Positions 7,523 to 60,357 of a DNA stretch of 64,000 nt are shown here, piece after piece; positions within the stretch are counted from its first letter, which is position 1; the number at the start of each line of letters is the position of its first letter. Below the pieces are notes generated by a model. That model made no database searches. It saw nothing but the letters and a program-made list of their open reading frames with translations, and had not been told where the DNA came from. Position numbers and translations under genes: made by a program. The stretch covers positions 5,593 to 69,592 of the forward strand of contig SKTZ01000029.1 of assembly GCA_007122335.1 (NCBI GenBank), written 5' to 3'. This DNA comes from Bacillota bacterium. Its GTDB lineage: Bacteria; Bacillota; Halanaerobiia; B1SED10-174.

Positions 7523-7593
7523 AATAGAGGGATTTTAGGAATTGAGTAGAAAAAATTAAGATAGAGAAAGTTTTACTTAAAGGAGGAAATGTT

Positions 7594-36318: not shown

Positions 36319-36324
36319 AGGGAA

Positions 36325-38076: not shown

Positions 38077-38091
38077 AGAGGGGGGAGATAA

Positions 38092-41024: not shown

Positions 41025-41061
41025 AGTAAGAGGACTGTTGTGGCTAACGGAGGTTTTACTT

Positions 41062-41553
41062 ATGTTTTTTTCCAAGGATGTCCTGGGAATGACAATAATT
41101 TTATATATTTTCTGGCTCCTTATTTCCTGGAGTTTACACTGGGTTAACCTTTTGCTGGGCTTTACCTTTGCTTTTTTTGTGGCCATCTTTATGGCCCCGG
41201 AAATCATAAAAAAAGAGGAAAGGCCGCCGTTTATTGCCCGAGGATTTTTTTTCCTGCGGTTTGTGTTTATTTTAATAAGGGAGATAATCAAAGCCAACAT
41301 CCAGGTTGTGCAGATTGTCCTCAGTCCCAAACTCAATATAACCCCCCAGTTTGTTGAAGTTAAGCAGGTCATGAGGTACCCGGTAACCCAGGTTTTGTGG
41401 GGCAACTCCATCACGCTAACACCGGGGACTTTAACCATAGATGTTGACGATAAAAAAATCCTGATTCATTTTTTAACCGGGGACCTTGTTTCTCACTTCC
41501 CCGATAACCCCGTTGGTAAAGCACTGGTCGAATTCGAGGGGAGATCAAAATGA
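41062..41553 (+). CDS. mrpE: Mrp antiporter subunit E (MnhE/MbhA-like)
   Basis: Family pattern of MnhE. ATG 41062 after GGAGG. Confidence 0.7.
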   Translation: MFFSKDVLGMTIILYIFWLLISWSLHWVNLLLGFTFAFFVAIFMAPEIIKKEERPPFIARGFFFLRFVFILIREIIKANIQVVQIVLSPKLNITPQFVEVKQVMRYPVTQVLWGNSITLTPGTLTIDVDDKKILIHFLTGDLVSHFPDNPVGKALVEFEGRSK

Positions 41554-41813
41554 TTGAAACTGCCTTTTTGGTGGCTGCTATTCTCCTGATGGTGAATGTT
41601 ATATTTTGCCTTTATCGGGCAGCAGTTGGTCCTACTCCGGGAGACCGGGTTGTCGCTATTAATATGATTACAAGTAAGACCATTGCGGTTATGGCCCTGG
41701 TTTCTTTTATGTACCATGAAGAACTGTTTCTTGATGTTGCAATTACTTATACCCTGATCGGTTATACAGCGACCATTTGTGTGGCTAAATACCTGGAATT
41801 GAAGAGGTTATAG
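41550..41813 (+). CDS. mrpF: Mrp antiporter subunit F (MnhF/PhaF)
   Basis: 87 aa, three TM helices. Start overlaps the mrpE stop (ATGA). Confidence 0.7.
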   Translation: MIETAFLVAAILLMVNVIFCLYRAAVGPTPGDRVVAINMITSKTIAVMALVSFMYHEELFLDVAITYTLIGYTATICVAKYLELKRL

Positions 41814-41825
41814 GAGGAGCAAGAA

Positions 41826-42146
41826 ATGCGGGAAATAATTGTAATGCTGTTTTTATTCACCGGTGTCTTCTTTTTTACAGTGGGAACAATCGGGGTTTTG
41901 CGCCTTCCCGATGTTTTTTGCCGCCTCCATGCCAATACAAAAAGTGATACCCTTGGTGTTGGTTTGGTCCTTTCTTCTTTAGTGCTTTATGAAGGACTTT
42001 CTTCAGCGGGAGTTAAAATAGTATTTATGATAATTTTTATCTTGATAACCAACCCCACTGCAGGCCATATTATTGCCCGAGCTTCTTATGATACAATTGT
42101 GGATTGGACCGGGCAGCTGGCCCGGCAAAAGGGTGGTGAGGAATAG
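41826..42146 (+). CDS. mrpG: Mrp antiporter subunit G (MnhG)
   Basis: 106 aa, MnhG-like pattern (VLRLPDVFCRLHANTKSDTLG). Confidence 0.7.
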   Translation: MREIIVMLFLFTGVFFFTVGTIGVLRLPDVFCRLHANTKSDTLGVGLVLSSLVLYEGLSSAGVKIVFMIIFILITNPTAGHIIARASYDTIVDWTGQLARQKGGEE

Positions 42147-42382
42147 TGGCGATCTTAGATCTCCTTTTATTGAGTATTCTTGTTCTCTGTGCTTTGGCCG
42201 CGGTTCGAACCCGGGATCTTCTTGGGGCAGTAATAATATATGCCGCTTATAGTCTTTTGATGGCAATTATCTGGCTACAACTGGGCTCACCTGATGTTGC
42301 GATTACGGAGGCTGCACTGGGAGCTGGAGTTACTACCATACTTATGATTGCCACCATTAGTAAGACGGGGAGGTATGAATGA
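42146..42382 (+). CDS. DUF4040-type membrane subunit (N-terminal MrpB/MbhD-like)
   Basis: 78 aa, two TM helices, GTG start overlapping the upstream stop. Position and size match MbhD-type split MrpB subunits. Confidence 0.55.
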   Translation: MAILDLLLLSILVLCALAAVRTRDLLGAVIIYAAYSLLMAIIWLQLGSPDVAITEAALGAGVTTILMIATISKTGRYE

Positions 42383-42735
42383 TGCGTCAAATTATCCCTT
42401 TTTTCTTAACCCTGGTCCTGGGAGCTGCTCTGCTACTGGTGGTCGCCGAAATGCCTCCGTTTGGGGATATAAATAACCCCGCTCATAATGTAGTTAGCGA
42501 ACGCTACCTGAATCAGGGAGTTCGGGAAACCGGAGCACAGAATATTGTCACTGCTATAATCACGGACTACCGTGCCTATGATACTCTGGGAGAGGTCACG
42601 GTTTTGTTTGCTGCTATTGCTGCAGTGCTTACTGTTTTAAACAGGTTGCGCTTGGGAGTAATCTGTCCTGAAGACAGGGAAAGGGGACTGACAGATGAGG
42701 ATGCAGGAGATCCTGATACTGAAGATAGTTGTTAG
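42379..42735 (+). CDS. MnhB-domain subunit (MrpB/MbhE-like)
   Basis: NIVTAIITDYRAYDTLGEVTVLF matches the MnhB signature. Confidence 0.6.
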   Translation: MMRQIIPFFLTLVLGAALLLVVAEMPPFGDINNPAHNVVSERYLNQGVRETGAQNIVTAIITDYRAYDTLGEVTVLFAAIAAVLTVLNRLRLGVICPEDRERGLTDEDAGDPDTEDSC

Positions 42736-43126
42736 ATTTGTTATTCCCTTTATCCAGGTCTATGGATTTTATGTAATTACTGCTGGACATCTTAGTCCTG
42801 GTGGTGGTTTTGCCGGGGGAACAATTGTTGCTGCCAGCATGGTTTTATATGCCCTGACTTTTGATGCTTCCCAGGGTCTTGAAAAACTCTCCCATGAAAG
42901 AGCATCCCTGTTTGAGAGTCTGGGAGCTATCTGGTATGTTGCCCTTGGTTTTTTGGGAATCCTTGTCGGAGGTAATTTCCTTACAAATGGGCAGATTGGA
43001 ATTCCTCTTGGCACACCGGGCTACCTGATAAGTGGGGGTTTGATTCCCCTTCTTTCTTTTGGGATTGGAATAAAAGTCGCAGTTACCGTTGTCAGCCTTT
43101 ATTATTCGCTGGTTGAGGAGGATTAG
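42695..43126 (+). CDS. MrpB C-terminal-like subunit (MbhF-like)
   Basis: GHLSPGGGFAGG motif typical of the MrpB second half. Start may be ATG 42701. Confidence 0.55.
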   Translation: MRMQEILILKIVVRFVIPFIQVYGFYVITAGHLSPGGGFAGGTIVAASMVLYALTFDASQGLEKLSHERASLFESLGAIWYVALGFLGILVGGNFLTNGQIGIPLGTPGYLISGGLIPLLSFGIGIKVAVTVVSLYYSLVEED

Positions 43127-43128
43127 TT

Positions 43129-43506
43129 ATGGCCGAAGCCCTTGCAGCCCTGGGCCAGAATTATTTCTTTTATTATGCTCTTATTCTTTTTATGGTTGGA
43201 TTTTATACCACACTGAGCCATTCAAATATTTTAAAAAAAATCATTGGGATCAATATAATGGAAACCTCAATATTCCTATTTTTTGTTGCCCTTGGTTATG
43301 TTGAGGGTGGGCAGGCTCCAATAATGGGTAGAGGAGCCGAAGGAGGGCCTTATATGAATCCCCTGCCCTCGGCCTTGATTCTTACTGGAATTGTTGTATC
43401 GGTAAGTATTACGGCTTTTGCCCTGGCTTTGATGGTTAAACTTTATCATTTTTATGGAACCCTTGACGCTGATGAAATTGTTATGCTGCGAGGAGAAAGA
43501 CAATGA
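43129..43506 (+). CDS. mrpC: Mrp antiporter subunit C (NuoK/MnhC-like)
   Basis: 125 aa, three TM helices, NuoK-like. Confidence 0.7.
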   Translation: MAEALAALGQNYFFYYALILFMVGFYTTLSHSNILKKIIGINIMETSIFLFFVALGYVEGGQAPIMGRGAEGGPYMNPLPSALILTGIVVSVSITAFALALMVKLYHFYGTLDADEIVMLRGERQ

Positions 43507-44993
43507 TATATCAGCTACCTGTTCTAATTGTGGTCCAACTTCTTTTGGGTTCTTTTCTTATGCCCATTGTGGGGAGGATTCGCAATCAGCTAATCCCCCA
43601 TATTTCGCTGTTTTTAATGGGTCTCGCCAATGTTTTCTCTATAATTTTACTTTTCCGGGTTGTCCGGGAAGGAAACATTCACTACCACCTTGGAAACTGG
43701 GCACCTCCCTGGGGCATTGAAATTGTTGCAGACCTTTTAGGTGCCTACATGGCAGTTATTATTACGGGAATAAGCTTTTTGGTCCTGGTTTTTGCCTGGC
43801 GGGATATTCAGAGAGAAATAAATTACGCCCTCAGGGGCTGGTTTTATACCCTGGTCCTACTGATTTCCGGGGCAATGGTAGGAATGGTTTTAACCAATGA
43901 TTTGTTCAATCTTTATGTTATGGTTGAAATCGTATCCCTTTGTGGTCCCGCCCTTGTGGCTATCCGGAACAACCGGCTTGCTGTGGAAGCAGGCTTTAAA
44001 TATCTGGTAATGATTGCTCTTGGTTCGGGCCCGATTCTTTTCGGGATTGCTCTAATTTATATGATTACCGGCCATTTGAACATGACTTTCGCCGGCCAGG
44101 AAGTATTAAATGTAATTCATGAATATCCCAGAGTTGCTCTTTTAGCCCAGGCCTTTTTCATCGTAGGTTTTGGGGTTAAGGCGGCCCTTTTTCCCCTGCA
44201 TGTCTGGCTCCCAGATGCTTATACTTCCGCACCTTCCCCCTCAAGTGCTCTTCTGGCCGGACTTGCGGCAAAAGTATATATAGTTGGTTTGACCCGGGTC
44301 CTTTTCAATCTTTATGGAATTGACGTACTTGCTACCACACCGCTTTTTACCATTCTCAAAGTAATGGCGGTGGCAGGGATTATCATGGGTTCAATAATGG
44401 CTCTAAACCAGAAAGATATAAAAAGGTTGGTGGCCTATTCAAGTGTTGCTCAAATTGGGTACATATTCCTGGGGCTTAGCCTGGCTACAGGGTTTAGTGT
44501 AACCGGGGCTATTCTCCACATTTTGAATCATGCCTTAATAAAGTCAATGATGTTTCTCTGCTGTGGAGTAATTATTTACCAGAAAAAAACCAGCAATGTG
44601 GATGAACTGGGGGGAGTGGGGAAGGAATTTCCCATAACCATGATTTGCTTTGGTATTGGTGCTTTTGCCATGGTTGGTATTCCCATGCTCAATGGTTTCA
44701 TTAGCAAATGGTATATCAGCCTGGGAGCCCTGGAATATGGGGGTCTGGCTGGTTTAATGTATTTGCTTGTGATTATTATCAGCAGCCTTTTAAATGGTCT
44801 TTATTATCTACCGGTATTAATTAAAGCCTTTTTGGGTGGGGATTCCCAAAAAGAAACTGTTTTTGATAAAGCACCAATTACTTTGATATTGCCAATTGTA
44901 ATTTTGGCTGCAGGTATAATTATTCTGGGGTTATTACCCTTTGTTCCGCTGCAAATTGCTGCAGACGCGGCCCAGCACTTGTTGGGCCAGTAA
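43503..44993 (+). CDS. mrpD: Mrp antiporter subunit D (NuoN/NuoM-like proton-conducting membrane transporter)
   Basis: 496 aa, ~14 TM. Conserved antiporter-like motifs (GFGVKAALFPLHVWLPDAYTSAPSPSSAL). Confidence 0.8.
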   Translation: MIYQLPVLIVVQLLLGSFLMPIVGRIRNQLIPHISLFLMGLANVFSIILLFRVVREGNIHYHLGNWAPPWGIEIVADLLGAYMAVIITGISFLVLVFAWRDIQREINYALRGWFYTLVLLISGAMVGMVLTNDLFNLYVMVEIVSLCGPALVAIRNNRLAVEAGFKYLVMIALGSGPILFGIALIYMITGHLNMTFAGQEVLNVIHEYPRVALLAQAFFIVGFGVKAALFPLHVWLPDAYTSAPSPSSALLAGLAAKVYIVGLTRVLFNLYGIDVLATTPLFTILKVMAVAGIIMGSIMALNQKDIKRLVAYSSVAQIGYIFLGLSLATGFSVTGAILHILNHALIKSMMFLCCGVIIYQKKTSNVDELGGVGKEFPITMICFGIGAFAMVGIPMLNGFISKWYISLGALEYGGLAGLMYLLVIIISSLLNGLYYLPVLIKAFLGGDSQKETVFDKAPITLILPIVILAAGIIILGLLPFVPLQIAADAAQHLLGQ

Positions 44994-45028
44994 AAAACAC
45001 TATGAATTAACAGGAGGAGGCAACCGGG

Positions 45029-46525
45029 ATGGTACAGGGAGTAGAAACGCATTCGCATTTACCGGGATTGGTCGTATTAATTCCAATAATTTTTACTGCA
45101 TTGGTAGGGATTTTCCAGAAAAGGTCATTTTTGCTCCGCAACTGGCTTTTTATTAGCGGCGCGGCAATTACCTTTGCTGGAATGGCTTTGATGGGCTATT
45201 ATGTCCTGCAGGGAAGAATACTGGTTATCAACTATCTTGTGGCCATGTTTCCGTTTACCATTACATTCAGAGTGGATACCCTAAGTTTTCTTATTGGGGT
45301 TGTTGCTGCAGGAGTATGGCTATTGGCTTCAATATATTGCTTGCAGTACATGAAAGATGACCATGCTCCCAACCGTTATTTCCCGGTTCATATTTTTACC
45401 CTGGCTGGTTCGCTAGGGGTATTTCTTGCGGGGAACCTCTATACTTTTTTCCTCTTTTATGAGGTAATGGCTTTTTCCGGTTACTTATTTGTTATCCATG
45501 CTGAAACTCCAGAAGCTTTTAAAGCTGGATCCAGGTACCTGATGGTAACCATCCTGAGTGGTATCCTGGTTTTCACTGGGGTTATTATTACCTATCAGCT
45601 GGCAGGAACTCTTGACCTGGGTTCTTTAGGAATCATTCCCGAGGCCAATGTTGTCTCCCTGATCGCCTTTGTGGCTTTTATAATTGGTTTTGGTTTTAAG
45701 GCGGGTCTTTTTCCGCTGCATACCTGGTTGCCTGCTGCTCACCCGGTTGCGCCGTCTCCAGCGAGTGCTTTGCTTTCTGGGATTTTGATCAAAACTGGAG
45801 CTTACGGAATAATCCGGGTAACCTATAACGTTTACGGGATCGAGATGATGCGGGATACTGGCTGGCCCACTATTCTGCTGATTTTCGCTGCGATTACCAC
45901 TCTTTACGGATCCATGGCTGCTCTGGTTCAGGATAATCTTAAAAGACGTCTCGCTTATTCAAGTATCAGTCAGATCGGATATATACTTATGGGGGGAGCC
46001 CTTCTTACCGAGCGTGGCCTGGCTGGTGATGTTTTTCACATTGTCAGTCATGCGACAATCAAAAGCACCTTGTTTTTAACTGCAGGGGCAATTATTACCA
46101 AGACGGGGATTAAATATGTAAGCCAGATGGCAGGAGTGGGGCGAAAAATGCCCTATACCATGGGGGCTTTTACCCTTGCTGCACTGGCTATGATCGGGAT
46201 TCCACCTTTAAATGGTTTTGTTAGTAAATGGGCCCTGGCCCTGGGTGCTTTAGATGCTGGCCAGCCAGGCTATGCGGTTGTTCTTTTAATCAGTAGTATG
46301 TTGAACGCCCTGTACTATTTACCAATTGTAATTCTTGCTTATTTCCGCAAACCGGAAGAAGGGACAGTTCTTTATGGAGATATGTTGCGTTACGATGAAG
46401 CCAGGGCGAGTATGCTTGTGCCAATTTTAATTCTGGCTCTGAGTTTGGTCATATTCAATATCCTACCTGTTAACCTGCCACTGGTTCTGGCCGAATTCTC
46501 CGCACGGGCCCTTTTCCAGCACTAG
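45029..46525 (+). CDS. second MrpD/NuoM-like antiporter subunit
   Basis: 498 aa paralog (GFGFKAGLFPLHTWLPAAHPVAPSPASALLS). Confidence 0.8.
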   Translation: MVQGVETHSHLPGLVVLIPIIFTALVGIFQKRSFLLRNWLFISGAAITFAGMALMGYYVLQGRILVINYLVAMFPFTITFRVDTLSFLIGVVAAGVWLLASIYCLQYMKDDHAPNRYFPVHIFTLAGSLGVFLAGNLYTFFLFYEVMAFSGYLFVIHAETPEAFKAGSRYLMVTILSGILVFTGVIITYQLAGTLDLGSLGIIPEANVVSLIAFVAFIIGFGFKAGLFPLHTWLPAAHPVAPSPASALLSGILIKTGAYGIIRVTYNVYGIEMMRDTGWPTILLIFAAITTLYGSMAALVQDNLKRRLAYSSISQIGYILMGGALLTERGLAGDVFHIVSHATIKSTLFLTAGAIITKTGIKYVSQMAGVGRKMPYTMGAFTLAALAMIGIPPLNGFVSKWALALGALDAGQPGYAVVLLISSMLNALYYLPIVILAYFRKPEEGTVLYGDMLRYDEARASMLVPILILALSLVIFNILPVNLPLVLAEFSARALFQH

Positions 46526-46541
46526 GAAGGATGTAGATATA

Positions 46542-48956
46542 ATGGTTAATGCAATCGGGCCGAGCATGCAAAACGCGTTGCTTGTAACCGCGATATTTGC
46601 TCCCCTTCTGGCCGCTGGAGCCCTGTTTAAAGTAAGGGTTTTTAAAACGGCACACAAAATTGCTCTTGTGGCAATTGGGCTTGCTGTTGGGGCGTTAGTT
46701 GCTGTTGTTGGGGAGCCGATAGAATTTATCTGGGAAGGTTTCCTCGGGGTAAGATTTGTCCTTGCTCCTGATTACATGGGGATTTTCCTTGCCATTATGG
46801 CCCTTGTTTTATGGTTTCTTTATACTCTTTTTAGCCTTGATTTTATGCAGAGAAGCCATAATTCAATTCGTTTTCTTTTCTTTTCCCTGCTTTCCCTGAC
46901 TGGAACCCTTGGTGTTTTTCTTGCAGGGGATCTTTTTACAATGTTTGTCTTCTTTGAATTTATGGCCTTTGCCTCTTTTCCCCTGGTTATCCATGAGGAG
47001 ACTGAAGAGGCTCACCGGGCGGGCAAACAGTACCTTTATATTGGAGTGCTGGGAGGCCTGACTATTTTGCTGGGCCTTTTTCTGCTGTACCATCGCCTGG
47101 GAACTCTTGTATACAGTGAACTGGGAGGAGCACTGGCTGGTGGGTCCCCGGTGGATATAATAATTATCGCTGGTCTGCTGCTCGGGTTTGCCATAAAGGC
47201 GGGCCTGGTTCCAGTCCACTTCTGGGTACCCCAGGGTTATGTTGCCGCCCCGGCACCTGGTAGCGCAATCCTTTCTGCCGTTCTTAAAAAATGTGGAGTT
47301 TTTGGGATTATCCGTTTGCTCTTTTTAATGGCTCCGATGTTAACTTTCGGGCAGGTAATACTTGGTTTTGGTTTATTAACAATGGTTTTGGGATCGCTAC
47401 TGGCCTTTTTTGAGCATAACGGGAAAAGAATACTTGCTTACAGCAGTGTAAGCCAGGCGGGTTATATTATGGTAGGGTTCGGCGGAGGCGCGATAATGGC
47501 TGAAACTGGAGTAATGGGAGGTCTTGGTTCTTTTTTCCACGTTCTCAACCATGCTCTCTTCAAAGGAAGCCTATTTTTAGCTTTGGGTTATACTTTTCTG
47601 CGAACCCGGGAATTCAATATTTATCGCCTGGGTAACCTCTGGAAGAAGATGCCCTTTACAACCATTTTAGCAGTTGTTTCTGCAGCCGGGCTAATGGGAT
47701 TACCTCTTTTTAACGGTTATCCCAGCAAAACAATGATTCACCACGCCATTACTTTCGCCGAAAGTGAAACTCAAATGGCGATATACGGATATGCTGAAAC
47801 CCTTTTTAATATTGGTGCCGCAGGGACCACTGCTTATTGCATCAAGCTGATTTATAATGTTTTCTTCGCTCCCCGGGAGCCTGAGTTTACAGGGGAAAAA
47901 GAAAAACCCCTGGTTCAGGGGATATTTATGGTTTTAATTGTAGCCATGCTTTTTATCGGGCTGTTTCCAACTCTGACCATGGAAACCATTATTTTCCCCG
48001 CTGCAGGTGCTTTTTTCCTGGACCCTGATTTTGTTGATTATAAATTAGGTGGGTACAATTTTTTCAATGCTTATGATCTGCGGGGGGCTTTTAAAATTCT
48101 TTTAATTGGTCTGGGGTTAACCGCTATCAACCTTGTTTTGGTCAAAAAACGAATAGACCTTCCCCGCTGGTTATCAATTGAAAGGCTTGTTTTGAATCCT
48201 TTAATTAAGGCTTTAGGGGCAATTCTTGGTGCTTCATATTATTTTATTAATAATCGGCTAATGGGTTTTGGGACTGGTCTCGTAGAAGGCTATAAAAAAG
48301 GACTTCCCTTTATTAACCACCTGGATGGCTATGTTGATGAAATAGGAAAGAGAACAGATGATCTTTTTGCCGGATTTGTTTTCAAGACCTCGGGTAGCCA
48401 TGACCAGAGAAAGCTGATCAATCTGATTTTAGATTATGGAAAGGAAGAAAAAGAAGAAGCTGAGCTGCATGGGTTCTGGAATTGGTTAACGGGTGAAGGA
48501 ATTTTACAACCAGTTGATAAAGAGAATGTTGATTCCCCCGATTTTATTGGAAGTGTTGAAGATTTCAGCAAAAGAATTCAGGAAATGATGGAAAAAGAAG
48601 AGTTGACGGAAAAAGAGAAAAATCGCGTAGAAAGACTTTTTGCCCGGCTTATGGCTTTAGAAGAAAAGGGCATTTCCCCAAAAAGTATGGAGGAGAAAAG
48701 TTATCCTCATTTGCGGATTATCCAGCGAATGGAAGAGATATTCCAGTACCTTACGGGGAATATACAAACTGTTGACGGGTTGGAAAAAGACCAGGAAAAA
48801 GCCCGGGTAGACAAGAAAAAAATCGAAAAAAAGAAGGAAGCTCTGGATTCCGGCTGGGGCAAGTGGAGCGTGTTGAACCTTAATTTTGACATGATTATCC
48901 TTGCTGTTACTCTGGTAATTGCGGTTATATTGCTGGTATTTTTTGCCCAGATTTAA
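46542..48956 (+). CDS. MrpA/NuoL-like antiporter subunit with ~230-aa hydrophilic helical extension and C-terminal TM anchor
   Basis: N-terminal ~520 aa antiporter core (GFAIKAGLVPVHFWVPQGYVAAPAPGSAILS). Then a charged, coiled-coil-like region (EEKEEAELHGF...KEKNRVERLFARLMALEEKG...). It ends with a single TM (MIILAVTLVIAVILLVFFAQI). Confidence 0.75.
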   Translation: MVNAIGPSMQNALLVTAIFAPLLAAGALFKVRVFKTAHKIALVAIGLAVGALVAVVGEPIEFIWEGFLGVRFVLAPDYMGIFLAIMALVLWFLYTLFSLDFMQRSHNSIRFLFFSLLSLTGTLGVFLAGDLFTMFVFFEFMAFASFPLVIHEETEEAHRAGKQYLYIGVLGGLTILLGLFLLYHRLGTLVYSELGGALAGGSPVDIIIIAGLLLGFAIKAGLVPVHFWVPQGYVAAPAPGSAILSAVLKKCGVFGIIRLLFLMAPMLTFGQVILGFGLLTMVLGSLLAFFEHNGKRILAYSSVSQAGYIMVGFGGGAIMAETGVMGGLGSFFHVLNHALFKGSLFLALGYTFLRTREFNIYRLGNLWKKMPFTTILAVVSAAGLMGLPLFNGYPSKTMIHHAITFAESETQMAIYGYAETLFNIGAAGTTAYCIKLIYNVFFAPREPEFTGEKEKPLVQGIFMVLIVAMLFIGLFPTLTMETIIFPAAGAFFLDPDFVDYKLGGYNFFNAYDLRGAFKILLIGLGLTAINLVLVKKRIDLPRWLSIERLVLNPLIKALGAILGASYYFINNRLMGFGTGLVEGYKKGLPFINHLDGYVDEIGKRTDDLFAGFVFKTSGSHDQRKLINLILDYGKEEKEEAELHGFWNWLTGEGILQPVDKENVDSPDFIGSVEDFSKRIQEMMEKEELTEKEKNRVERLFARLMALEEKGISPKSMEEKSYPHLRIIQRMEEIFQYLTGNIQTVDGLEKDQEKARVDKKKIEKKKEALDSGWGKWSVLNLNFDMIILAVTLVIAVILLVFFAQI

Positions 48957-49504: not shown

Positions 49505-49591
49505 TGGTGCCGAAGGTGGGATTCGAACCCACACGAAGGTAACTTCACACGACCCTGAATCGTGCGCGTCTGCCAATTCCGCCACTTCGGC
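49505..49591 (-). tRNA. tRNA-Leu (anticodon CAG)
   Basis: The reverse complement reads GCCGAAG-TG-GCGG...ACGC-CACGA-TTCAGGG-TCGTG-(long variable arm)-GTGGG-TTCGAAT-CCCAC-CTTCGGC-ACCA. It has a 7-bp acceptor stem, a CAG anticodon loop, a long extra arm and an encoded CCA. Confidence 0.85.
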
Positions 49592-49782
49592 TTACACATA
49601 TAATATAAAGTATCGTGGTCTCCTTGTCAAGGAATATCTGGTATTTTTGGCAGGAATAATGTGCTTTATGACGAATTGAAAAAGGTGGGTGTTTAACAGG
49701 AAAGAAAATTATTAGGCAAGTGGGATGGATTGGTTTTGCGAGGATTGAAAAATATTTTTGGTGCGAGGAGGGCAGGTTCTAT

Positions 49783-50232
49783 ATGAGCAAGGATCTGGTC
49801 GCAGAAAAGTCAAACCTTATTAAGGTGTTACAGACGGAGCAAAAGAAGGAAGGTTTTATCTCTGATGCTGCAATAGAGAGAATAGCTGGAGAATTTAACC
49901 TTCCTGTTGTAGAGGTTGAAGGTGTTGTGAGTTTTTATACCCAGTTCAAAAGGGTTCCCCCGGGCAAATACCAGATTATGGTTTGTGATGGGACTGCATG
50001 TCATATTATCGGTTCAACCCTGATCTTGAACTGGCTTACTGACGAACTTGGCATAAAAGACGGGGAGACCGATGAAGAAGGTCTCTTTTCTTTGGAAAGC
50101 GTTGCCTGCCTGGGTTGTTGCAGTTTAGCCCCGGTAATCAGCATTAACGGCAAGGTCTATGGTAAGCTTGATCGCAAAAAACTATTAAAAATTGTAGCAG
50201 ACTTTCGGAAAAAGGAGGCAGCTGGATCATGA
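49783..50232 (+). CDS. NuoE/HydC-family [2Fe-2S] ferredoxin subunit (second copy)
   Basis: VCDGTACHIIG...ACLGCCSLAPV four-Cys pattern. ATG 49783 after GAGGAGGG. Confidence 0.8.
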   Translation: MSKDLVAEKSNLIKVLQTEQKKEGFISDAAIERIAGEFNLPVVEVEGVVSFYTQFKRVPPGKYQIMVCDGTACHIIGSTLILNWLTDELGIKDGETDEEGLFSLESVACLGCCSLAPVISINGKVYGKLDRKKLLKIVADFRKKEAAGS

Positions 50233-51950
50233 TAAAAAGAATTAAAGTGGGGATGGCCAGCTGTGGTATTGCTGCCGGAGCAGGTGAAGTGCTGGAATTA
50301 CTGCAGGAAATGGCCGGAGATAATAAAGTTGTTGAAGTTGGTTGTATCGGACACTGTTATGCTGAACCTCTTGTTGAAGTTGAAACAGATTCCGGGGACT
50401 ATATTTTTGAAAAAGTCCAACCCAAGGAAGAAGACCTGCAGAAGATTATTGACCTGGATGAATTTTCTCGCTTTCAACCCCATTCCCCGCGTGTTGATAA
50501 AGAAAGACAATTGATTACCTCTCTCGCCGGGAAAATTGTTCCCACCTCTCTTGAGGAATACAGGGCTAACAAAGGATACGAGGGCTTGAAAAAAGCTCTG
50601 GAAATGGAACCGGATGCAATTGTTGACGAAGTGAAAACTTCCAAGTTGCGTGGCCGTGGTGGGGGAGGTTTTCCCACGGGATTAAAATGGAGCTTCCTGG
50701 CAGCCAAGGACAGCGAGCAAAAAGTTTTAATTTGCAATGCTGACGAGGGAGATCCGGGGGCTTTCATGGATCGGACTTTAATGGAATCACTTCCCCATCA
50801 GGTTTTGGAAGGAATGTTGATCGGGGCGAAAGCAACTGGTGCCCGCCAATTATTTATTTATTGCCGGGCGGAATATCCCCTGGCAGTAAAAAATTTGAAT
50901 ATTGCGATTGAACAGATTGAAAAAGAAGGCCTTAATATAATCGATGGAGAGCCCGTTAAAATTATGGTTAAAGAAGGAGCGGGGGCATTTGTTTGCGGAG
51001 AAGAAACTGCCCTCATTCACTCCCTTGAAGGGAAGAGAGGGACTCCAAGGTATCGCCCCCCATATCCAACTGACTATGGTTTCCACGGCTATCCCTCGGC
51101 AATAAACAATGTTGAAAGTTTTGCGAATATCCCCCTGATTGTCCGGGATGGAGGGGAAAATTTTGCAGCTACGGGAACCGAGAATAGCACGGGAACAAAA
51201 CTCTTTGCTCTCGCCGGAGACCTGGAGTATTCTGGACTTGTTGAGGTTCCCATGGGAATTTCTATAGGGGAAGTTGTCTACGACATTGGAGGGGCTGAAC
51301 CGGGAAGTGTTAAGGCTGTCCAGATTGGAGGCCCCAGCGGTGGTTGCATTCCTGCGGAACACTTTGATACTCCCATTGACTACGACTCTCTCACTTCCCT
51401 GGGTGCAATTATGGGGTCAGGTGGCTTGATTGTAATTGGAAATAACCGTTGCATGGTTGAAACTGCTCGCTATTTCCTGGAATTTACAACCAGGGAAAGC
51501 TGCGGGAAGTGTACTTTCTGCCGGATCGGAACCAAGCGAATGCTGGAGACTCTGGAAAGAATAACCGGTGGGGAAGGTGGTCCCGAAGATGTAGAGCTCC
51601 TCGCTGATCTGGGTAAGAAAATTATTCAGGGATCCTTGTGTGGGCTCGGTCAAACCGCTCCCAACCCGGTGCTTTCTACCCTCAAATATTTCAATAATGA
51701 ATACCTGGCTCACGTCGAAGAAGGCCATTGTGCGGCCATGGAGTGCAAGGCCCTGGTTGATGTTTTTATCGATAGGGAAACCTGCATTGAATGCGGGCAG
51801 TGTATTAAGAATTGCCCCGTTGATTGTATAAGCGAGGATTACGTGATTGATAATGAAATTTGCACCCGCTGCAACAGCTGTATTGAGGTTTGTCCTGTAG
51901 ATGCCATTGCCCGGGTTGCGAAAGGAGGGGAAGTCAGTGTCGGAAATTAA
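50229..51950 (+). CDS. NuoF/HydB-family NAD(H)-binding flavoprotein with N-terminal [2Fe-2S] and C-terminal 2x[4Fe-4S] domains (second copy)
   Basis: GRGGGGFPTGLKW motif and CxxCxxCxxxCP x2 at the C-terminus. Paralog of 36325..38076. Confidence 0.85.
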   Translation: MIKRIKVGMASCGIAAGAGEVLELLQEMAGDNKVVEVGCIGHCYAEPLVEVETDSGDYIFEKVQPKEEDLQKIIDLDEFSRFQPHSPRVDKERQLITSLAGKIVPTSLEEYRANKGYEGLKKALEMEPDAIVDEVKTSKLRGRGGGGFPTGLKWSFLAAKDSEQKVLICNADEGDPGAFMDRTLMESLPHQVLEGMLIGAKATGARQLFIYCRAEYPLAVKNLNIAIEQIEKEGLNIIDGEPVKIMVKEGAGAFVCGEETALIHSLEGKRGTPRYRPPYPTDYGFHGYPSAINNVESFANIPLIVRDGGENFAATGTENSTGTKLFALAGDLEYSGLVEVPMGISIGEVVYDIGGAEPGSVKAVQIGGPSGGCIPAEHFDTPIDYDSLTSLGAIMGSGGLIVIGNNRCMVETARYFLEFTTRESCGKCTFCRIGTKRMLETLERITGGEGGPEDVELLADLGKKIIQGSLCGLGQTAPNPVLSTLKYFNNEYLAHVEEGHCAAMECKALVDVFIDRETCIECGQCIKNCPVDCISEDYVIDNEICTRCNSCIEVCPVDAIARVAKGGEVSVGN

Positions 51951-53976
51951 ACTGACCATAGACGGAAAACAGATTACAGCCCCCAGAGGGAAGACCATAC
52001 TTGAAGTGGCCAAAGAAAATGGGATAGAAATCCCGACCATGTGTCACGATGATAGAATAAGCCAGACCACCTCCTGCTTTGTTTGTATTGTCCGGGAAGG
52101 GAAGAATGGAAACTGGATGCCCTCCTGCTCTGCAGAAGCCCAGGATGGGATGGAAGTTGATGCATCAAGTGATCTAGTTCGGGATATGCGGAAAACCGCC
52201 CTGGACCTGCTCCTTTCTGAGCATAGCGGAGATTGCGAGGCTCCCTGCACGATTTCCTGTCCCGCCCATGCCCGGGTTGAAGAATACGTGAGAGCAGGAC
52301 GGGACGGTGATTTGCGGAAAACACTGGAAATTGCCAAGGAGCGTATTCCCCTGCCCCTCTCAATTGGAAGGGTTTGTCCGCGGTTTTGTGAAAAGGACTG
52401 CCGGCGTAATGTGTTAGATAATGAAGGTGTTGCCATTAACGATTTCAAACGCATTTCGGCCGACCTTTATTATGATGAATATATGGAGGAACGGAAAGAA
52501 CTGACCGGACAAAAGGTTGCTATTATCGGTTCTGGCCCTGGCGGACTGGCAACTGCCTATTTCCTGAGGTTAGAAGGTGTGGCCTCTGATATTTACGAAA
52601 AATTACCTGAGGCCGGAGGTATGCTCCGTTACGGTATTCCAGAATACCGCTTGCCCAAGAAGGTTTTGGATAAAGAACTGGCTCATTTTGAAAAAATGGG
52701 TGGTATTAAAATATACTGTAATAACGAATTGGGCAAAGACATCCAGCTGGATAAACTCAAAAAAGAATATGATGCAGTTGTGGTAGCTGTTGGTTCCTGG
52801 AAGGCCAGCGGAATGAGAACTGAAGGGGAAGAGCTGGCCAGGGGAGGCATTGACTGGCTGGAAGAGCTGGCCCTTAATGGCTGGAAAGGTGAAGACCCTG
52901 GAGAAACCATAGTTGTAGGTGGTGGAAACACCGCCATGGACTGTGTACGCAGTGCGCTTCGCCTGACTGATGAACCTGTTCACTGTATGTACCGCCGGAC
53001 GGAAAAAGAAATGCCGGCCGAGCAAATTGAGATAGATGAAGCACGGGAGGAAGGTGCCCGGTTTAATTTCCTAACTCAGCCCATTAAACTTCGCAGAGAA
53101 AACGGGAAACTTGTTCTGGAATGCTTGCGGATGGAACTGGGTGAACCAGATGCTTCGGGAAGAAGGCGTCCCGTGCCCATTGAAGGCAGTGAATTTGAAG
53201 TTGCCGCAGATACTGTTATCGCTGCTATCGGACAGAAAACCCTTGCTCCAAAAGGGCTTCCAACTAACAAGTGGGGCGACGTAGATGTTGAAGAAGCTGA
53301 CTGCCGGGCAGAAGGTAATGTTTTTGCTGCAGGTGACTGTGTAAGTGGTCCAGCAACAGTTGTCGAAGCAGTTGCCGGTGGAAGAAGAACTGCCCTGGGA
53401 ATACTGGCCTACCTTAAAGGAGAAGAGTGCCAGCTTCCCCGTCAGATTAATGTCTCGCGCGGACACTGGCAGAGCATGTCCGAAGACGATCTGGTCTACC
53501 TTTTTGAACCCGATAAAAACAAAAGAGTCCCTCTGCGTTTGATACCCCTGGAAGAGAGAACTTCTACCTTTAAAGAAGTTAGTTATACCTTTACCGAAGA
53601 GGAAATTTTGGAAGAAGGAAAACGCTGTATTGAGTGTAGCTGTACTGCCAAAGGAGATTGTAAGCTTAAAGACTTCTCTGAAACCTATGGAGCCCATCCG
53701 GAAACATTTGGTGGAGAGAAAGGAAATAATACCTACAATTCCCGCCATCCCCACATAATAATGGATAACGGAAAATGTGTAAAATGTGGGATTTGTGTAA
53801 AAGTCTGCAGCGAGGTCGTTAACGAATATCTCCTGGGCTTTAAAAACCGGGGCTTTAAAACCAAGGTTGAAACTGCATTTGATACAACCCTTCCTGAATT
53901 CTGCACCGATTGCGGTGAATGTATTGAAGCCTGCCCGGTGGGAGCCCTGGATTGGAAAAAGAAAAAGGACGAATAA
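51937..53976 (+). CDS. GltD/NfnB-like NAD(P)H-dependent FAD oxidoreductase fused between NuoG-type N-terminal [2Fe-2S] and C-terminal His-ligated/[4Fe-4S] cluster domains
   Basis: N-terminal ferredoxin-like [2Fe-2S] region ([22 protein letters not shown]...MCHDD...CFVC). Then the GltD-type two-cluster motif ([10 protein letters not shown]...CPRFCEKDC) and the FAD/NAD(P) Rossmann motif ([15 protein letters not shown]). The C-terminus carries [21 protein letters not shown] and [15 protein letters not shown] 51937 after AAAGGAGGGG. Confidence 0.7.
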
Positions 53977-56103: not shown

Positions 56104-56395
56104 GTTGAGTTTTGAGGAGGCACTCCAGAAACTGGAGCAAATAGTTGAGAAACTGGAAAGCGGCGATTTAAAGCTGGATGAATCCCTTGAATTGTTTGAA
56201 GAAGGTGTTCGTCTTTCCCGGCTCTGCCAGAAAAAACTGGAAGAGGCCCAGGGCAAAATAGAAAAACTGGTCACCGAGAAAGATGGTGAGATCGAAACAG
56301 AACCTTTTGCTTCCCCGGAAAAAGATGAAGAAGATCAAAACGGAACTGGAAAGGATTCAAAAAATAGTAGAAACTTATTTGCCCAGGATAACTGA
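56081..56395 (+). CDS. xseB: exodeoxyribonuclease VII small subunit (with C-terminal extension)
   Basis: [50 protein letters not shown] is the XseB helical hairpin. Overlaps ispA by ~70 nt. Confidence 0.75.
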   Translation: MGARQKDKLSFEEALQKLEQIVEKLESGDLKLDESLELFEEGVRLSRLCQKKLEEAQGKIEKLVTEKDGEIETEPFASPEKDEEDQNGTGKDSKNSRNLFAQDN

Positions 56396-57209
56396 AGAAA
56401 GGGCGATTCCCGAGAAATTTTCTGAAGCAATAGGCTATGCTCTATCGGGAAAAGGAAAACGGATCCGGCCCTTTCTTTTCCTTCAGGCATTTGGGATCTA
56501 TTCTTCTCATGAAGAAAAAGCGGTGCCTTTTGCCTGTGGAATTGAAGCAATTCATACTTATTCTCTGGTGCACGATGACCTTCCAGTTATGGATGATGAC
56601 GATTTCCGCAGGGGCAGGCTTACTACTCACCGGGTTTATGGCGAAGCCAATGCCTTGCTGGTTGGAGACGCGCTGCTTTCCCTTGCTTTTGAACTGATGA
56701 ATTCAAACGCCATTGATTTTCCCCCCGAAACCGTCCAGATGGCCATAGACAGAGTTTTAAAAGCTTCAGGCCCAGAAGGGATGGTCGGGGGCCAGTACCT
56801 TGATTTAAAAGGCGAAGGTAGAAAGCTTAACTTCAAACAATTGGAGGAGATCCACCGGAAAAAGACAGGTGCTTTAATCACAGCTTCGGTGGTTAGCGGA
56901 GGAATTTTAGGTGGTGCTCCTGAAGAGGAATTAAAAGCCCTGGAAGATTATGGGCAGGAACTGGGTTTATTATTTCAGATTACTGACGATTTACTGGATG
57001 TAGTTGGAGACCCTGATAAAACTGGAAAAGCCGGGCAAAAAGATGCAGCTTTAGGTAAATCAACCTATCCTTCGCTTCTCGGCATTGATGGAGCAAAGAA
57101 GAAAGCAGAGGAAAAACGCCTGAGAGCGCAAAAAGCTGCTGTTAAACTGGGAAAAAAAGGGAGGCTTTTCATTGAACTGGCTGATTTTGTTTTTTCCCGG
57201 GATAGGTGA
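56325..57209 (+). CDS. ispA: farnesyl diphosphate synthase (polyprenyl synthetase)
   Basis: First and second Asp-rich motifs (LVHDDLPVMDDDDFRRG; FQITDDLLD). Confidence 0.85.
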   Translation: MKKIKTELERIQKIVETYLPRITEERAIPEKFSEAIGYALSGKGKRIRPFLFLQAFGIYSSHEEKAVPFACGIEAIHTYSLVHDDLPVMDDDDFRRGRLTTHRVYGEANALLVGDALLSLAFELMNSNAIDFPPETVQMAIDRVLKASGPEGMVGGQYLDLKGEGRKLNFKQLEEIHRKKTGALITASVVSGGILGGAPEEELKALEDYGQELGLLFQITDDLLDVVGDPDKTGKAGQKDAALGKSTYPSLLGIDGAKKKAEEKRLRAQKAAVKLGKKGRLFIELADFVFSRDR

Positions 57210-57239
57210 TAATTGCTAGTAATAAGTGGTTATGTTATA

Positions 57240-57830
57240 ATTAATTGCGCATCGGCGGTGCAGTATCCTAGTCAGCTTTGTACTCTTGAAGGCGGGCCTA
57301 AAAATCCGTCAAAGGGCACATCGATGAAGTTCCTGGTTGTGGCTACTGACGCCCAGTCGGGGGTCATAGCTGGGAGTTAAGGATTTCGGGGCGATCCACA
57401 ATGGCATGTGGGCGTGGACCCTGATTCCGCGGAGGCCCGGATACAAGTCGGGAGCTAGTGTCCGGGGAACCTGCAGAAACCGCAAGGTAGCTGCAGTGTA
57501 GCCTGCTTTGAGTGGTAAGGGGAGAGGAGGGTATTAAGTCCTGCTTCCCAGGGGCCCTAGGAAGTAGTTCCTTTACCTCTGAAACCCTTACTGCAAAAGA
57601 AGCTAGGGAGTAATTAAGGCTGTCAAGGAAAACTTCTAGGCTGTCCCACTGTGGGGATAGACCGGGGATTGAAGTGTGGTCTGAGTGGTAATCCAGCCCT
57701 GCATATGGTGACATTGCAGAGTGATTTAAAGGGAAACCGCCAAAAGGGCAACCTTTTGGAGATCACTGGGAAAGCCTGCTGGACCTAAGCCGCAGCATTT
57801 ATCCGGTCTATTACCGCCGATGCGCCTGGA
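57240..57830 (+). ncRNA. ole: OLE (ornate, large, extremophilic) RNA candidate
   Basis: A ~580-nt GC-rich, ORF-free interval lies between ispA and a small membrane-protein gene. It is closed by a perfect 12-bp terminal helix GCGCATCGGCGG (57247-57258) / CCGCCGATGCGC (57814-57825). It contains many internal hairpins, for example CTGCAG..CTGCAG. The flanking gene order matches the published OLE locus. Strand inferred from synteny. Confidence 0.7.
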
Positions 57831-57853
57831 ATTATTTTTTGGGGGGAAAAATA

Positions 57854-58408
57854 TTGAACAAGAATCTCCAGACGGGAATTACAATGGGGGTATCAACTTT
57901 TTTTATTGCCATCCTCGTGGTGGCTTTATCCCGTTTGGCGGTAGCCAACCTGACCGCTTTTCTGGCAACAGTTGTTTTTCTCCTGATTATAACCATTGGT
58001 GTTCTGTTTGATATGATTGGGGTCGCGGCAGCCGCGGCCGATGTTGCTCCATTTAATGCCCGGGCGGCCCGGAAAGATTTTGGAGCCAGGACAGGCCTGC
58101 AACTGGTTCAAAACGCAGATAGAGTAGCAACCTTTTGCAGCGATATTGTTGGTGATATTTGCGGAATTGTAAGTGGTGCGCTGGGTGCAATGATCGTAGT
58201 TCGCCTGGCCTTCGCAGTTGATTTTAGTGAAGCTGTTCTAAACATAACAATTGTTGCCCTGGCAGCTGCTTTAACAGTTGGCGGGAAAGGTTTTTGTAAG
58301 GGGATTGGGATAAACAGGGCCAACGAAATTATTGGTTTTGTGGGTAATTTAATTGCACTTGTCCAGGGCTTTAACCCCGGAAAAAGAAAAGGAGGGCGCA
58401 GTAAATGA
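57854..58408 (+). CDS. oapA: OLE-associated membrane protein A candidate
   Basis: Small four-TM membrane protein immediately downstream of the OLE candidate and upstream of dxs. Start ambiguous: TTG 57839, TTG 57854 or ATG 57884. Confidence 0.5.
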   Translation: MNKNLQTGITMGVSTFFIAILVVALSRLAVANLTAFLATVVFLLIITIGVLFDMIGVAAAAADVAPFNARAARKDFGARTGLQLVQNADRVATFCSDIVGDICGIVSGALGAMIVVRLAFAVDFSEAVLNITIVALAAALTVGGKGFCKGIGINRANEIIGFVGNLIALVQGFNPGKRKGGRSK

Positions 58409-60357
58409 TCCAGCTGGATGATATAAAAGGGCCTGAAATATTGCGGGAATGCGGCCCCGATGATCTGAAAAACATTTCTGATCAAATCCGCGAACGAATT
58501 ATTGATGTTGTATCCAAAAATGGAGGACATCTGGCTTCCAATCTGGGGGTTGTTGAATTGACTGTGGCCCTTCATTCAATTTTCTCGAGCCCTCGGGATA
58601 AAATTGTCTGGGATGTGGGGCATCAGTGCTATGCCCATAAATTGGTGACAGGCAGACAAAAAGAATTTGAAACCCTTCGTAAGTACAGGGGAATGAGTGG
58701 TTTCCCCAAAAGAAATGAAAGCCACCACGATATTGTAGAAACAGGGCACAGCAGTACTTCTCTTTCTGCAGCAATGGGCTTAGCAATGGCCCGGGAACAA
58801 AAAGGCGAAAACCACGAAATAATTGCAGTGATAGGAGACGGGGCTCTATCCGGAGGGATGGCTCTGGAAGCTCTTAATCACATTGGACACCTGAATAAAA
58901 AAATAATAGTTGTTTTAAACGATAATGAAATGTCCATTTCCAAAAACGTGGGAGCTCTGGCCAATTACCTGTCAAGAATCCGCACTGAACCGGTTTATCA
59001 AAAACTGAGAAGTGATGCAGAATTTTTAATGAAGAGGATTCCCGCTATTGGCGGACGGATGGCATTTGCCGCAGATCGGATCAAAGATAGCTTAAAGTAC
59101 CTTGTTCTTCCCGGTGTTTTTTTTGAGGAACTTGGATTTACCTACCTCGGCCCTGTTTCGGGGCATGATATTTCCGCCCTTCGCCAGTATTTCCAGCGTA
59201 GCAAGAGACTGGATGGCCCTCTTTTGATCCATGCCATTACGGAAAAAGGAAAGGGTTATCACCCGGCAGAAAAGAGCCCTTCCCGTTTCCATGGAACAGG
59301 ACCTTTTATCCTAGAAAATGGAGAAGGAAAGGTTCGTTCCAGCGGAAAAAGCTTTACCAGTTGTTTCAGCGATATAATTTGTGAAATGGCGGAAAAAGAT
59401 GAAAAGATAGTCGCTATCACTGCTGCGATGCCCGATGGAACTGGACTTGATAAATTTTCCCAAAAATTTCCCGATCGCTTTTTTGATGTTGGTATTGCTG
59501 AACAACACGGGGTTACCCTTGCAGCTGGAATGGCCCGTGGTGGCTTGAAACCTGTAGTTGCAATATACTCAACTTTTTTACAGCGTGCCTATGATCAAAT
59601 TATCCACGATGTATGCCTGCCCAATCTCCCGGTAATTTTTGCCGTTGATCGGGCCGGCTTGGTCGGCGAGGATGGAGAAACCCACCATGGCGTTTTTGAC
59701 CTTTCTTTTCTTCGCCATATACCCAATATGAATGTTCTGGCTCCCCGAGATCAGGTGGAACTGGAAAAGATGTTCACTTGGGCCCAGAGCTGTGAAGGAC
59801 CGGTGGCAATTCGCTATCCCAGAGGAAGTGTTCCCCAACCTCCCTTTAAGAGTGATCAACCCATCAACAGGGGGAAAGGAGAAATGCTCCGCAGGGGCAA
59901 GGATATCCTGCTTTTAGGTAGTGGGAGCATGGCCTGGGATGGGTACAAGGTTGCAGAAATACTGGAGAGCAAGGGATATTCAGTAGGTGTTGCTGACTTG
60001 AGGTTTATTAAACCCCTCGATGAAAAAAATATCTCCAGGTGGATAGAAAATGTTTCAATTGTTGTTACCTTGGAAGAAAATTATGTTGCGGGGGGAATGG
60101 GTTCAGCTATTCTTGAGTTTATGGCCAGGGAAAAGATTGAAAAACCTGTTTTAAATATTGGTCTTCCCGATCGGTTCATTACCCATGGAAATATTGGTGA
60201 ATTATTGCGGGAAAATGGACTTGATATTGATAATATGGTGGATAGAATTGAGGATTTTTGGATTTCCTGCTCCAAAAACCAGAAAAGGGATTCAGATTAT
60301 GGAGAAAAGATTGGACCTTTTGCTCGTAGAACTAGGGCTTTTTTCTTCAAGAAATAA
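58405..60357 (+). CDS. dxs: 1-deoxy-D-xylulose-5-phosphate synthase
   Basis: TPP-binding motif GDGALSGGMALEALNH plus transketolase-like pyrimidine and C-terminal domains. Has a ~25-aa C-terminal extension that overlaps tlyA. Confidence 0.9.
   Translation: MIQLDDIKGPEILRECGPDDLKNISDQIRERIIDVVSKNGGHLASNLGVVELTVALHSIFSSPRDKIVWDVGHQCYAHKLVTGRQKEFETLRKYRGMSGFPKRNESHHDIVETGHSSTSLSAAMGLAMAREQKGENHEIIAVIGDGALSGGMALEALNHIGHLNKKIIVVLNDNEMSISKNVGALANYLSRIRTEPVYQKLRSDAEFLMKRIPAIGGRMAFAADRIKDSLKYLVLPGVFFEELGFTYLGPVSGHDISALRQYFQRSKRLDGPLLIHAITEKGKGYHPAEKSPSRFHGTGPFILENGEGKVRSSGKSFTSCFSDIICEMAEKDEKIVAITAAMPDGTGLDKFSQKFPDRFFDVGIAEQHGVTLAAGMARGGLKPVVAIYSTFLQRAYDQIIHDVCLPNLPVIFAVDRAGLVGEDGETHHGVFDLSFLRHIPNMNVLAPRDQVELEKMFTWAQSCEGPVAIRYPRGSVPQPPFKSDQPINRGKGEMLRRGKDILLLGSGSMAWDGYKVAEILESKGYSVGVADLRFIKPLDEKNISRWIENVSIVVTLEENYVAGGMGSAILEFMAREKIEKPVLNIGLPDRFITHGNIGELLRENGLDIDNMVDRIEDFWISCSKNQKRDSDYGEKIGPFARRTRAFFFKK

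Follow-up and report, generated by a model that had tools for sequence, protein, structure and literature searches.

The OLE (ornate, large, extremophilic) RNAs, described in 2006 and since enumerated across GTDB with 2,822 hits in Bacillota (PMC11332333), form a class of large bacterial non-coding RNAs for which about 25 conserved helices with covariation and about 25% near-invariant positions have been published. In Halalkalibacterium (Bacillus) halodurans, OLE occurs as one RNA species of great stability and abundance, which acts with the protein OapA as a ribonucleoprotein (RNP) (PMC3413148). GOLLD, ROOL and raiA/ModT are likewise large and highly structured non-coding RNAs, with no sequence or structural homology to OLE; GOLLD, ROOL and OLE self-assemble as seen by cryo-electron microscopy (cryo-EM), and OLE is set apart from the other large ornate RNAs by its dimers and its association with a membrane protein. 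Block et al. are said to have found in 2011 that OapA binds OLE RNA cooperatively and localises the RNA to the membrane. Here we analyse a 64,000-nucleotide stretch of contig SKTZ01000029.1 from an uncultured Bacillota bacterium (hereafter the window), in which a first-pass annotation, made from the sequence without database searches, had proposed an OLE RNA between the genes ispA and dxs. We estimate a probability of about 0.97 that the segment from 57247 to approximately 57825-57840 on the plus strand is the ole gene, specifying a full-length OLE RNA, and that 57854-58408 is oapA, the gene of its membrane partner.

The proposal was borne out by a covariance-model search of the whole window with Rfam 15, a check suggested in the annotation itself. 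The OLE family RF01071 matched the plus strand at 495.7 bits (E = 2e-142, gathering score 50), end to end over model positions 1-616 of 616. Only two matches were found at the gathering threshold, OLE and one tRNA, so that among the large RNAs named above OLE alone was detected. The G+C enrichment noted earlier was also found (53% in the RNA against 44% in the whole window).

57239-57833, plus strand: OLE RNA, match to RF01071; the functional RNA probably extends from 57247 to about 57825-57840

On mapping the Rfam alignment to window coordinates, 140 of the 159 model pairs were canonical and 8 were deleted, the deletions all falling at 57436-57499, in two stems whose position identifies them as P7 and P8. 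Because the Rfam model leaves the outermost long-range helices without annotation, these helices were tested independently. At least 80 loci from named genomes were fetched through homologues of the protein encoded downstream (loci are cited by L numbers where they need to be told apart), and nhmmer found an OLE homologue in 77 of 80, counts being those among the matches listed. Thirty-eight full-length OLE copies, including that of the window, were aligned (alignment A2) and folded with RNAalifold, which predicted 157 pairs, 104 of them with at least one compensatory double change. The helices recovered were P1, a two-part P2, P3 with P3.1, P4, a junction helix, P5, P6, P8, P9 and the 3' domain. 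In the window, P1, P2, P3, P3.1, P4 and the junction helix consist of canonical pairs throughout. Well over 100 columns of the alignment are invariant and many more are at least 90% conserved, with the window matching all of them. Given this independent result, it is very unlikely that the covariance hit and the covariation are artefacts, and no data contradict the assignment to the OLE family.

The same helices, P1 to P15, are found in the window and in the OLE RNAs of H. halodurans, C. acetobutylicum and C. botulinum. The characterised OLE RNAs and that of the window share an A-rich L4, a GGCC L9.3 and a bulged P13 with a GNRA loop, as well as a proximal promoter abutting P1, an oapA partner and a gene cluster centred on ispA and dxs. 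In the window copy, P7 and P8 do not reach the consensus length, and P1, at 13 bp, exceeds the median of 9 and is richer in G+C than usual. Its host belongs to an uncultured lineage known from metagenome-assembled genomes (MAGs). These differences stay within the published range, and the window OLE is an ordinary copy of an already known class.

The helix closing the molecule had been described as a perfect 12-bp pairing; the helix is real, and a repeat search together with direct reading raises its length to 13 perfect pairs, GCGCATCGGCGGT with ACCGCCGATGCGC.

57247-57259, plus strand: P1, 5' arm, forming 13 perfect pairs with 57813-57825
57813-57825, plus strand: P1, 3' arm, with the same pairing and the same covariation evidence

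By our own arithmetic, a perfect inverted repeat of 13-mers is expected by chance about 0.005 times in 800 nt. The register of the helix was tested in 58 distinct loci anchored on the invariant motifs TGCAGTAT and GACCTAAG. Positions 1-9 of P1 were paired in register in 91% of cells, as compared with 26-62% after a register shift of 1-3 nt and 72 ± 1.4% with the 3' arms exchanged at random among the sequences. Most P1 positions show three to five canonical pair types across these loci, and RNAalifold gives 6-16 compensatory changes at six of eight pairs. The median number of contiguous pairs is 9, and the 13 of the window are the second longest in the set. The closing helix is the stem named P1 in the literature, near the start of which the 5' ends of the B. 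halodurans OLE lie (PMC3413148), and it is conserved and covarying in the 58 related loci.

Close relatives provide a further view of the locus. Over 8 kb the window shares at least 99.9% identity with the MAG contigs PWFX01000101.1, SLAQ01000031.1 and PWVI01000107.1, and over 10 kb it shares 89.5% with PWGV01000093.1 (L081). In comparison with L081, OLE is 97.1% identical from P1 to P1, and the values for the flanking genes lie between 83.7% (tlyA) and 94.3% (xseB); nothing else at the locus is as well conserved as the OLE RNA in this comparison, and the RNA is under purifying selection. Of the 17 substitutions within OLE, 6 are at unpaired positions; among the others, all of them single changes, pairing is kept in 5 cases, lost in 5 and gained in 1, and there is no double change. 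Such numbers are too small for covariation, the evidence for which was therefore drawn from the deeper alignment.

The interval had been described as free of open reading frames (ORFs) apart from one antisense ORF taken as spurious. In the mechanical sense the first part does not hold, since three ORFs of 55-116 amino acids are present; as to the only sizeable one, its dismissal as a gene was upheld.

57364-57714, minus strand: antisense ORF, 116 amino acids, ATG-initiated, spurious

In favour of a minus-strand protein is the existence of this ATG-initiated frame of 116 codons. It has no Pfam match, a stop at codon 4 breaks the frame in L081, and its substitutions are spread 4/4/5 over the codon positions with no third-position bias, on which grounds it was rejected as a gene. 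Among the 58 OLE loci, only 21 have an antisense stretch of 100 or more codons without a stop, and the structure of the plus-strand RNA explains the conservation. The coding alternative is barely credible and may be regarded as already effectively refuted.

The remaining parts of the RNA are given below in 5' to 3' order. The numbering of the small helices (P10, P11, P12, P14, P15 and P4a) is our own assignment from textual descriptions.

57260-57271, plus strand: P2, 5' strand GCAG ... CCUAG with a CUAG palindrome, pairing with 57636-57644 (9/9 canonical)
57273-57287, plus strand: P3 and P3.1, 5' strands, pairing with 57617-57622 and 57606-57611 (6 + 6 bp, 12/12 canonical)
57291-57310, plus strand: P4 hairpin with A-rich loop CCUAAAAA at 57297-57304
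57314-57317, plus strand: junction-closing helix GGGC, P4a-like, pairing with 57501-57504 (4/4 canonical, from RNAalifold)
57318-57380, plus strand: J4a/5, P5/P5.1 hairpin (57330-57376, loop GCCCA) and J5/6, the OapC k-turn region (19/20 pairs canonical)
57381-57428, plus strand: P6/P6.1 hairpin, loop AUGGCA (13/14 pairs canonical)
57436-57466, plus strand: P7, shorter than the consensus (11/17 model pairs canonical, 5 deleted)
57469-57499, plus strand: P8 hairpin, slightly shortened
57505-57603, plus strand: P9 long arm with terminal loop GGGGCCC (57551-57557) containing a GGCC palindrome (30/35 pairs canonical)
57625-57635 and 57645-57655, plus strand: two small hairpins flanking the 3' strand of P2 (57636-57644), here numbered P10 and P11
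57656-57812, plus strand: 3' multi-helix domain, P12-P15 region, with three enclosing helices canonical (11/11, 5/5 and 6/6)
57699-57719, plus strand: P13 hairpin, primary OapB site, with GUGA tetraloop at 57708-57711 and a single bulged U57704
57739-57760, plus strand: P14.1-type hairpin capped by GCAA (GNRA), a weak second OapB site (PMC7936274)

Many of these elements can be related to sites of interaction known from other OLE RNAs. In the RNAalifold prediction P2 is built in two parts on the conserved GCAG/CUGU and CUAG/CUAG pairings, and OapA sites have been mapped to palindromes in or near P2 and P4a (PMC12265935). P3 and P3.1, which carry many compensatory changes, agree with the published 12 bp of a helix proposed to span the membrane (PMC12265935). 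The flanks of P5, ACAUCGAUGAAG and UUAA, agree with highly conserved consensus positions in the region of the OapC-binding k-turn (defined in PMC9723947), and the loops of P5 and P6 are those of the consensus. Dimerisation of Clostridium OLE as seen by cryo-EM involves the A-rich L4, contacts of L5, L6 and L7 and the palindromic L9.3 (PMC12286853; PMC12265935); L4 forms the dimer bridge B1, and bridge B3 is formed by an L9.3 palindrome that may be GGCC, GAUC or AGCU (PMC12286853). At the level of sequence the L4 and L9.3 motifs are both present in the window. The P13 hairpin reads CUGCA-U-AUG/GUGA/CAU-UGCAG, with a loop identical to that of B. halodurans, and shows the GNRA loop and one-nucleotide bulge that are the hallmarks of the OapB site (PMC7936274). 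In L081 two substitutions change this loop from GUGA to GCAA, which is still GNRA. At the level of sequence, the motifs for dimerisation, OapB binding and OapC binding are all intact in the window RNA.

Comparison with the described variants points the same way. Variant 1 has short P7 and P8 similar to those of the window, but it also shortens P9 and often loses the P13 OapB site, whereas variant 2 is without P7 and P8, both of which the window keeps in short form (PMC11332333). The window OLE is of the full-length type, with a complete P9 bearing its kissing loop and with the GNRA loop and bulge of P13 intact. Structural variation was also observed among the fetched loci. In four OLEs from anaerobe MAGs (L017, L032, L034 and L054) the distal P9 arm, including the GGCC of L9.3, is gone (A2 columns ~417-480) from RNAs that are otherwise apparently full-length; the window, unlike these, retains the arm. 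Four Oscillospiraceae copies (L020, L026, L030 and L073) carry an extra, lineage-specific G+C-rich hairpin just after P5 (A2 columns 135-155), and their P1 has a one-nucleotide bulge (GCUAAGC-GGCGGC / GCCGCYGGCUUAGC).

A sigma-70-type promoter, with 10 of 12 consensus matches in addition to a TG extension, was recognised by a consensus scan immediately upstream of P1.

57213-57218, plus strand: promoter -35 hexamer TTGCTA, with a 17-nt spacer to the -10 box
57233-57241, plus strand: TG-extended -10 element TGtTATAAT, with a predicted start at about 57247-57249, the first bases of P1

Such sites are no commoner in the 3-kb region than in shuffled sequence (3 seen against 3.5 expected) and the scan is not significant alone; the support for the promoter therefore rests on its position and conservation. 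A -10 box matching at least 5/6 positions lies just upstream of P1 in all 58 related loci, as compared with 41% of shuffled segments, the TG extension is present in 51 of the 58, and the most frequent distance from the end of the box to the inner end of P1 is 20-21 nt. The proximal OLE promoter of B. halodurans accounts for a more than 100-fold gain in expression, and it was by 5' rapid amplification of cDNA ends that the transcript ends near the start of P1 were found (PMC3413148). A strong predicted promoter with a TG-extended -10 box abuts P1 as in B. halodurans, and we infer from the sequence that transcription starts at the first P1 bases, about 6-8 nt past the -10 box.

At the other end of the RNA the start of oapA follows P1 after 28 nt. 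Neither a terminator-like site nor a separate promoter was found in this gap, and oapA must therefore be co-transcribed with OLE. The shared transcript gives some ground for a different reading, in which the structured region would serve chiefly in cis, as a very large 5' leader or attenuator on the oapA-dxs mRNA and not as a stable RNA working in trans; its folding, above all P1 closure beside a downstream U-rich tract, would set the level of read-through. Such a tract (7 of 8 T) does begin 8 nt after P1 in the window, and likewise in the anaerobe relatives L017, L034 and L043. The tract is, however, separated from the P1 helix, and T-rich tails after P1 (8 of 58 loci) are no commoner than A-rich ones (9 of 58), a result on which P1 with a U-tract was rejected as a terminator of the family as a whole. 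The B. halodurans OLE is a stable, abundant RNA that works with OapA in an RNP, and some 580 nt with about 25 helices and with motifs for protein binding and dimerisation far exceed what attenuation needs. We therefore regard a mainly cis-acting leader as very improbable. A narrower proposal, that the long G+C-rich 13-bp P1 and the U-tract serve as a lineage-specific long-range terminator or attenuator before oapA and dxs, is also unlikely; if it were true, the amount of transcription entering oapA and dxs would depend on proper folding of the complete OLE RNA, and RNP assembly would be coupled to the supply of OapA and of isoprenoid precursors. A separate observation in this spacer concerns the pentamer TACAT, which occurs within 40 nt past the inner end of the P1 3' arm in 29 of the 58 loci, mostly in Bacillaceae (for example L008, L015, L028, L046, L063, L077 and L079) and far above chance for a 5-mer; it is absent from the window and could represent a conserved element of the OLE-oapA spacer with a part in processing or regulation.

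The gene of a small four-helix membrane protein had been noted directly after the RNA.

57854-58408, plus strand: oapA, 184 amino acids, four long helices and a DxxxD motif, 28 nt past P1

The TTG at 57854, preceded by a Shine-Dalgarno-like GGGGGG at 57842-57847, is more likely to be the start than 57839, because close homologues begin MSKNL and the 184-residue form is found in public gene calls. The DxxxD motif is DIVGD at residues 97-101, with both aspartates and the glycine invariant in 23 diverse homologues. The AlphaFold2 (AF2) model, with a mean predicted local distance difference test (pLDDT) score of 88, has long helices at 5-36, 40-66, 93-126 and 131-159, in agreement with the hydropathy profile, and a four-transmembrane topology is predicted. 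Basic residues are concentrated on what is assumed to be the cytoplasmic side, with five K/R in the loop 60-90 and, in the C-terminal 45 residues, eight K/R against one D/E. The best PDB match of the modelled fold is CorB (7M1U); a sequence search of the PDB with the same protein gave no match. The gene lies immediately 3' of OLE in 77 of the 80 homologue loci, as it does in the window. Adjacency to OLE, four helices, DxxxD and a CorB-like fold are the published attributes of OapA, and the downstream gene has each of them.

The OapA of H. halodurans (WP_010898928.1) compares closely: like that of the window it is encoded directly after ole, has about 180 residues, four transmembrane helices and DxxxD, and both proteins have a basic cytoplasmic loop and tail, are without soluble domains and give CorB 7M1U as the best match. 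The two are linked via Bacillaceae homologues of 36-40% identity, each beside its own OLE, and the window OapA is at most 49% identical to any species representative among the matches listed. The agreement in motif, length, helices and fold answers the comparison with OapA that had been suggested earlier. MpfA, CorB and CorC, Mg2+ transporters of the CNNM family (PF01595), in contrast, are without DxxxD and have a conserved proline, three transmembrane helices per monomer and CBS and CorC domains; judging from the model, the window protein would be related to CNNM in fold only and is not a member of that family. With regard to existing annotation, the public oapA call of L081 has 252 amino acids (L081 5772-6530, approximately window 57650-58408) and reaches about 200 nt into the unannotated OLE, the 184-residue form corresponding to 555 nt, and JGI copies of the same OapA cluster carry both the 252- and the 184-residue calls.

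By analogy with H. halodurans and Clostridium, the OLE RNA would be transcribed abundantly from its own promoter, in addition to read-through from ispA, with transcription running on into oapA and dxs. The RNA would fold with P1 closing the molecule and then dimerise, and OapA dimers, binding the palindromes around P2 and P4a, would tether it to the membrane or insert it there. The resulting RNP may recruit OapB, OapC, bS21 and other proteins and may aid tolerance of short-chain alcohols, cold, excess Mg2+ and poor carbon sources. On this basis we infer that it functions as a membrane-associated stress-response RNP. It has been proposed in the literature that OLE RNA substitutes for the domains missing from OapA, and OLE occurrence is anticorrelated with that of MpfA. 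Modulation of a CNNM-like divalent-cation transport by OapA is probably the way in which the RNP works, since both this anticorrelation and the kinship of OapA with the CNNM transporters make it the most likely core activity.

A number of points set limits to our reading of the locus as an intact ole-oapA pair. The mechanism just outlined has been transferred from H. halodurans and Clostridium, to which the window organism is only distantly related. The protein has no curated Pfam or NCBIfam family, which is the reason that OapA was tested by motif, fold and gene context; it has neither a CBS nor a CorC domain, and PF01595 gave no match even at E <= 10. OapB is a KOW/SBB protein and OapC is YbxF of the L7Ae family, present in approximately 60% and 45% of OLE hosts respectively; no L7Ae or KOW match was found with Pfam among ten small ORFs of the window, a negative that is uninformative because oapB and oapC normally lie elsewhere in the genome. 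Lastly, P7 and P8 fall short of the consensus length through the 8 deleted model pairs, and this could indicate a decaying, non-functional OLE relic; rare defective ole genes are indeed known from the literature, though in organisms without OapA. P7 is the most variable region of alignment A2, and OLE RNAs commonly differ in the stretch between J6/7 and P8 (PMC11332333); according to one structural account, the P7 and P8 stems do not form dimer contacts (PMC12265935). Against decay stand the coverage of the whole model at a very high score, the intactness of the other helices and of the known functional motifs, the intact adjoining oapA, and the higher conservation of OLE than of any other feature between the two relatives. 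A relic is highly improbable, and a full-length OLE RNA with its partner gene remains the preferred interpretation.

The genes flanking the pair were identified with curated models, which confirmed every neighbour named in the first-pass annotation: folD, xseA, xseB, ispA, dxs, a tlyA-type methyltransferase gene, nadK and argR are supported by Pfam, and the farnesyl diphosphate synthase, TlyA, recN, dxs and nadK by NCBIfam.

56379-57209, plus strand: ispA, farnesyl diphosphate synthase (PF00348; NF045485, 328 bits), start according to a 276-residue MAG call
58405-60357, plus strand: dxs (TIGR00204, 851 bits), its start overlapping the oapA stop

The order in the window is folD-xseA-xseB-ispA-OLE-oapA-dxs-tlyA-nadK-argR-recN. 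The annotation had appealed to a reported gene order, which is not spelled out in the text of the OLE papers searched and was measured directly instead. The synteny holds: 45 of 77 fetched OLE loci (±4 kb) show the most frequent order, (folD)-xseA-xseB-ispA-OLE-oapA-dxs-tlyA, with ispA directly upstream of OLE in 50 of 69 and dxs directly downstream of oapA in 60 of 74. On an identical MAG contig (L082) spo0A, which is typical of endospore-forming Bacillota, lies just past recN.

Elsewhere in the window, the only tRNA is a tRNA-Leu(CAG) with a long variable arm at 49505-49591 on the minus strand, between NUDIX and NuoE-like genes. Two similar clusters at 35827-40779 and 49720-53976 contain NuoE/NuoF-like and large Fe-S oxidoreductase genes and are probably electron-bifurcating hydrogenase or formate-dehydrogenase-type modules, and a run of small and large hydrophobic ORFs at 41038-48956 resembles an Mrp-type multi-subunit cation/proton antiporter. 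These readings were made from translations, with Pfam support for 51901-53976 only, via its L081 counterpart.

Some of the fetched loci carry labels from outside Bacillota. Several OapA homologues are labelled Caldatribacteriota or Atribacterota, and two Atribacterota-labelled contigs, one of them of 181 kb, have full-length OLEs of 488 and 466 bits directly upstream of oapA (L085, OLE 7218-7806 and oapA 8001-8540; L087, 7361-7949 and 8001-8561). Their context is mscL-OLE-oapA-C69 dipeptidases, without ispA or dxs, and the nearest named relative of the flanking dipeptidase is from Atribacterota (86%), with Bacillota at 63-65%, on par with Thermotogota. These sequences suggest a resident OLE-oapA locus outside Bacillota. 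No link between OLE and Atribacterota was found in the OLE literature searched, and the GTDB survey had excluded its 24 non-Bacillota OLE hits as possible artefacts (PMC11332333). The L087 contig also bears tandem c-di-GMP-I riboswitch aptamers (14029-14255, minus strand, 83 and 79 bits) upstream of a peptidase C39/C70-like gene. OLE-oapA pairs were further observed on five contigs titled Muribaculaceae, Bacteroidaceae or Pseudomonas sp. (L009, L014, L057, L066 and L068), most of them short MAG pieces and the first four with low nhmmer scores of 72-87 bits; these are probably mis-binned or mislabelled Bacillota DNA, variant OLEs, or both.

OLE RNAs rank among the largest and best conserved non-coding RNAs of bacteria, and according to a recent proposal they cross the membrane as dimers. 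To this the window copy adds little, namely that the class, its promoter, P1, protein sites and gene neighbourhood are kept in one more uncultured lineage. Its practical value lies in correct annotation, as public gene calls can overrun an unannotated OLE. The Atribacterota loci are a more interesting lead than the window copy, for they bear on whether OLE is confined to Bacillota.

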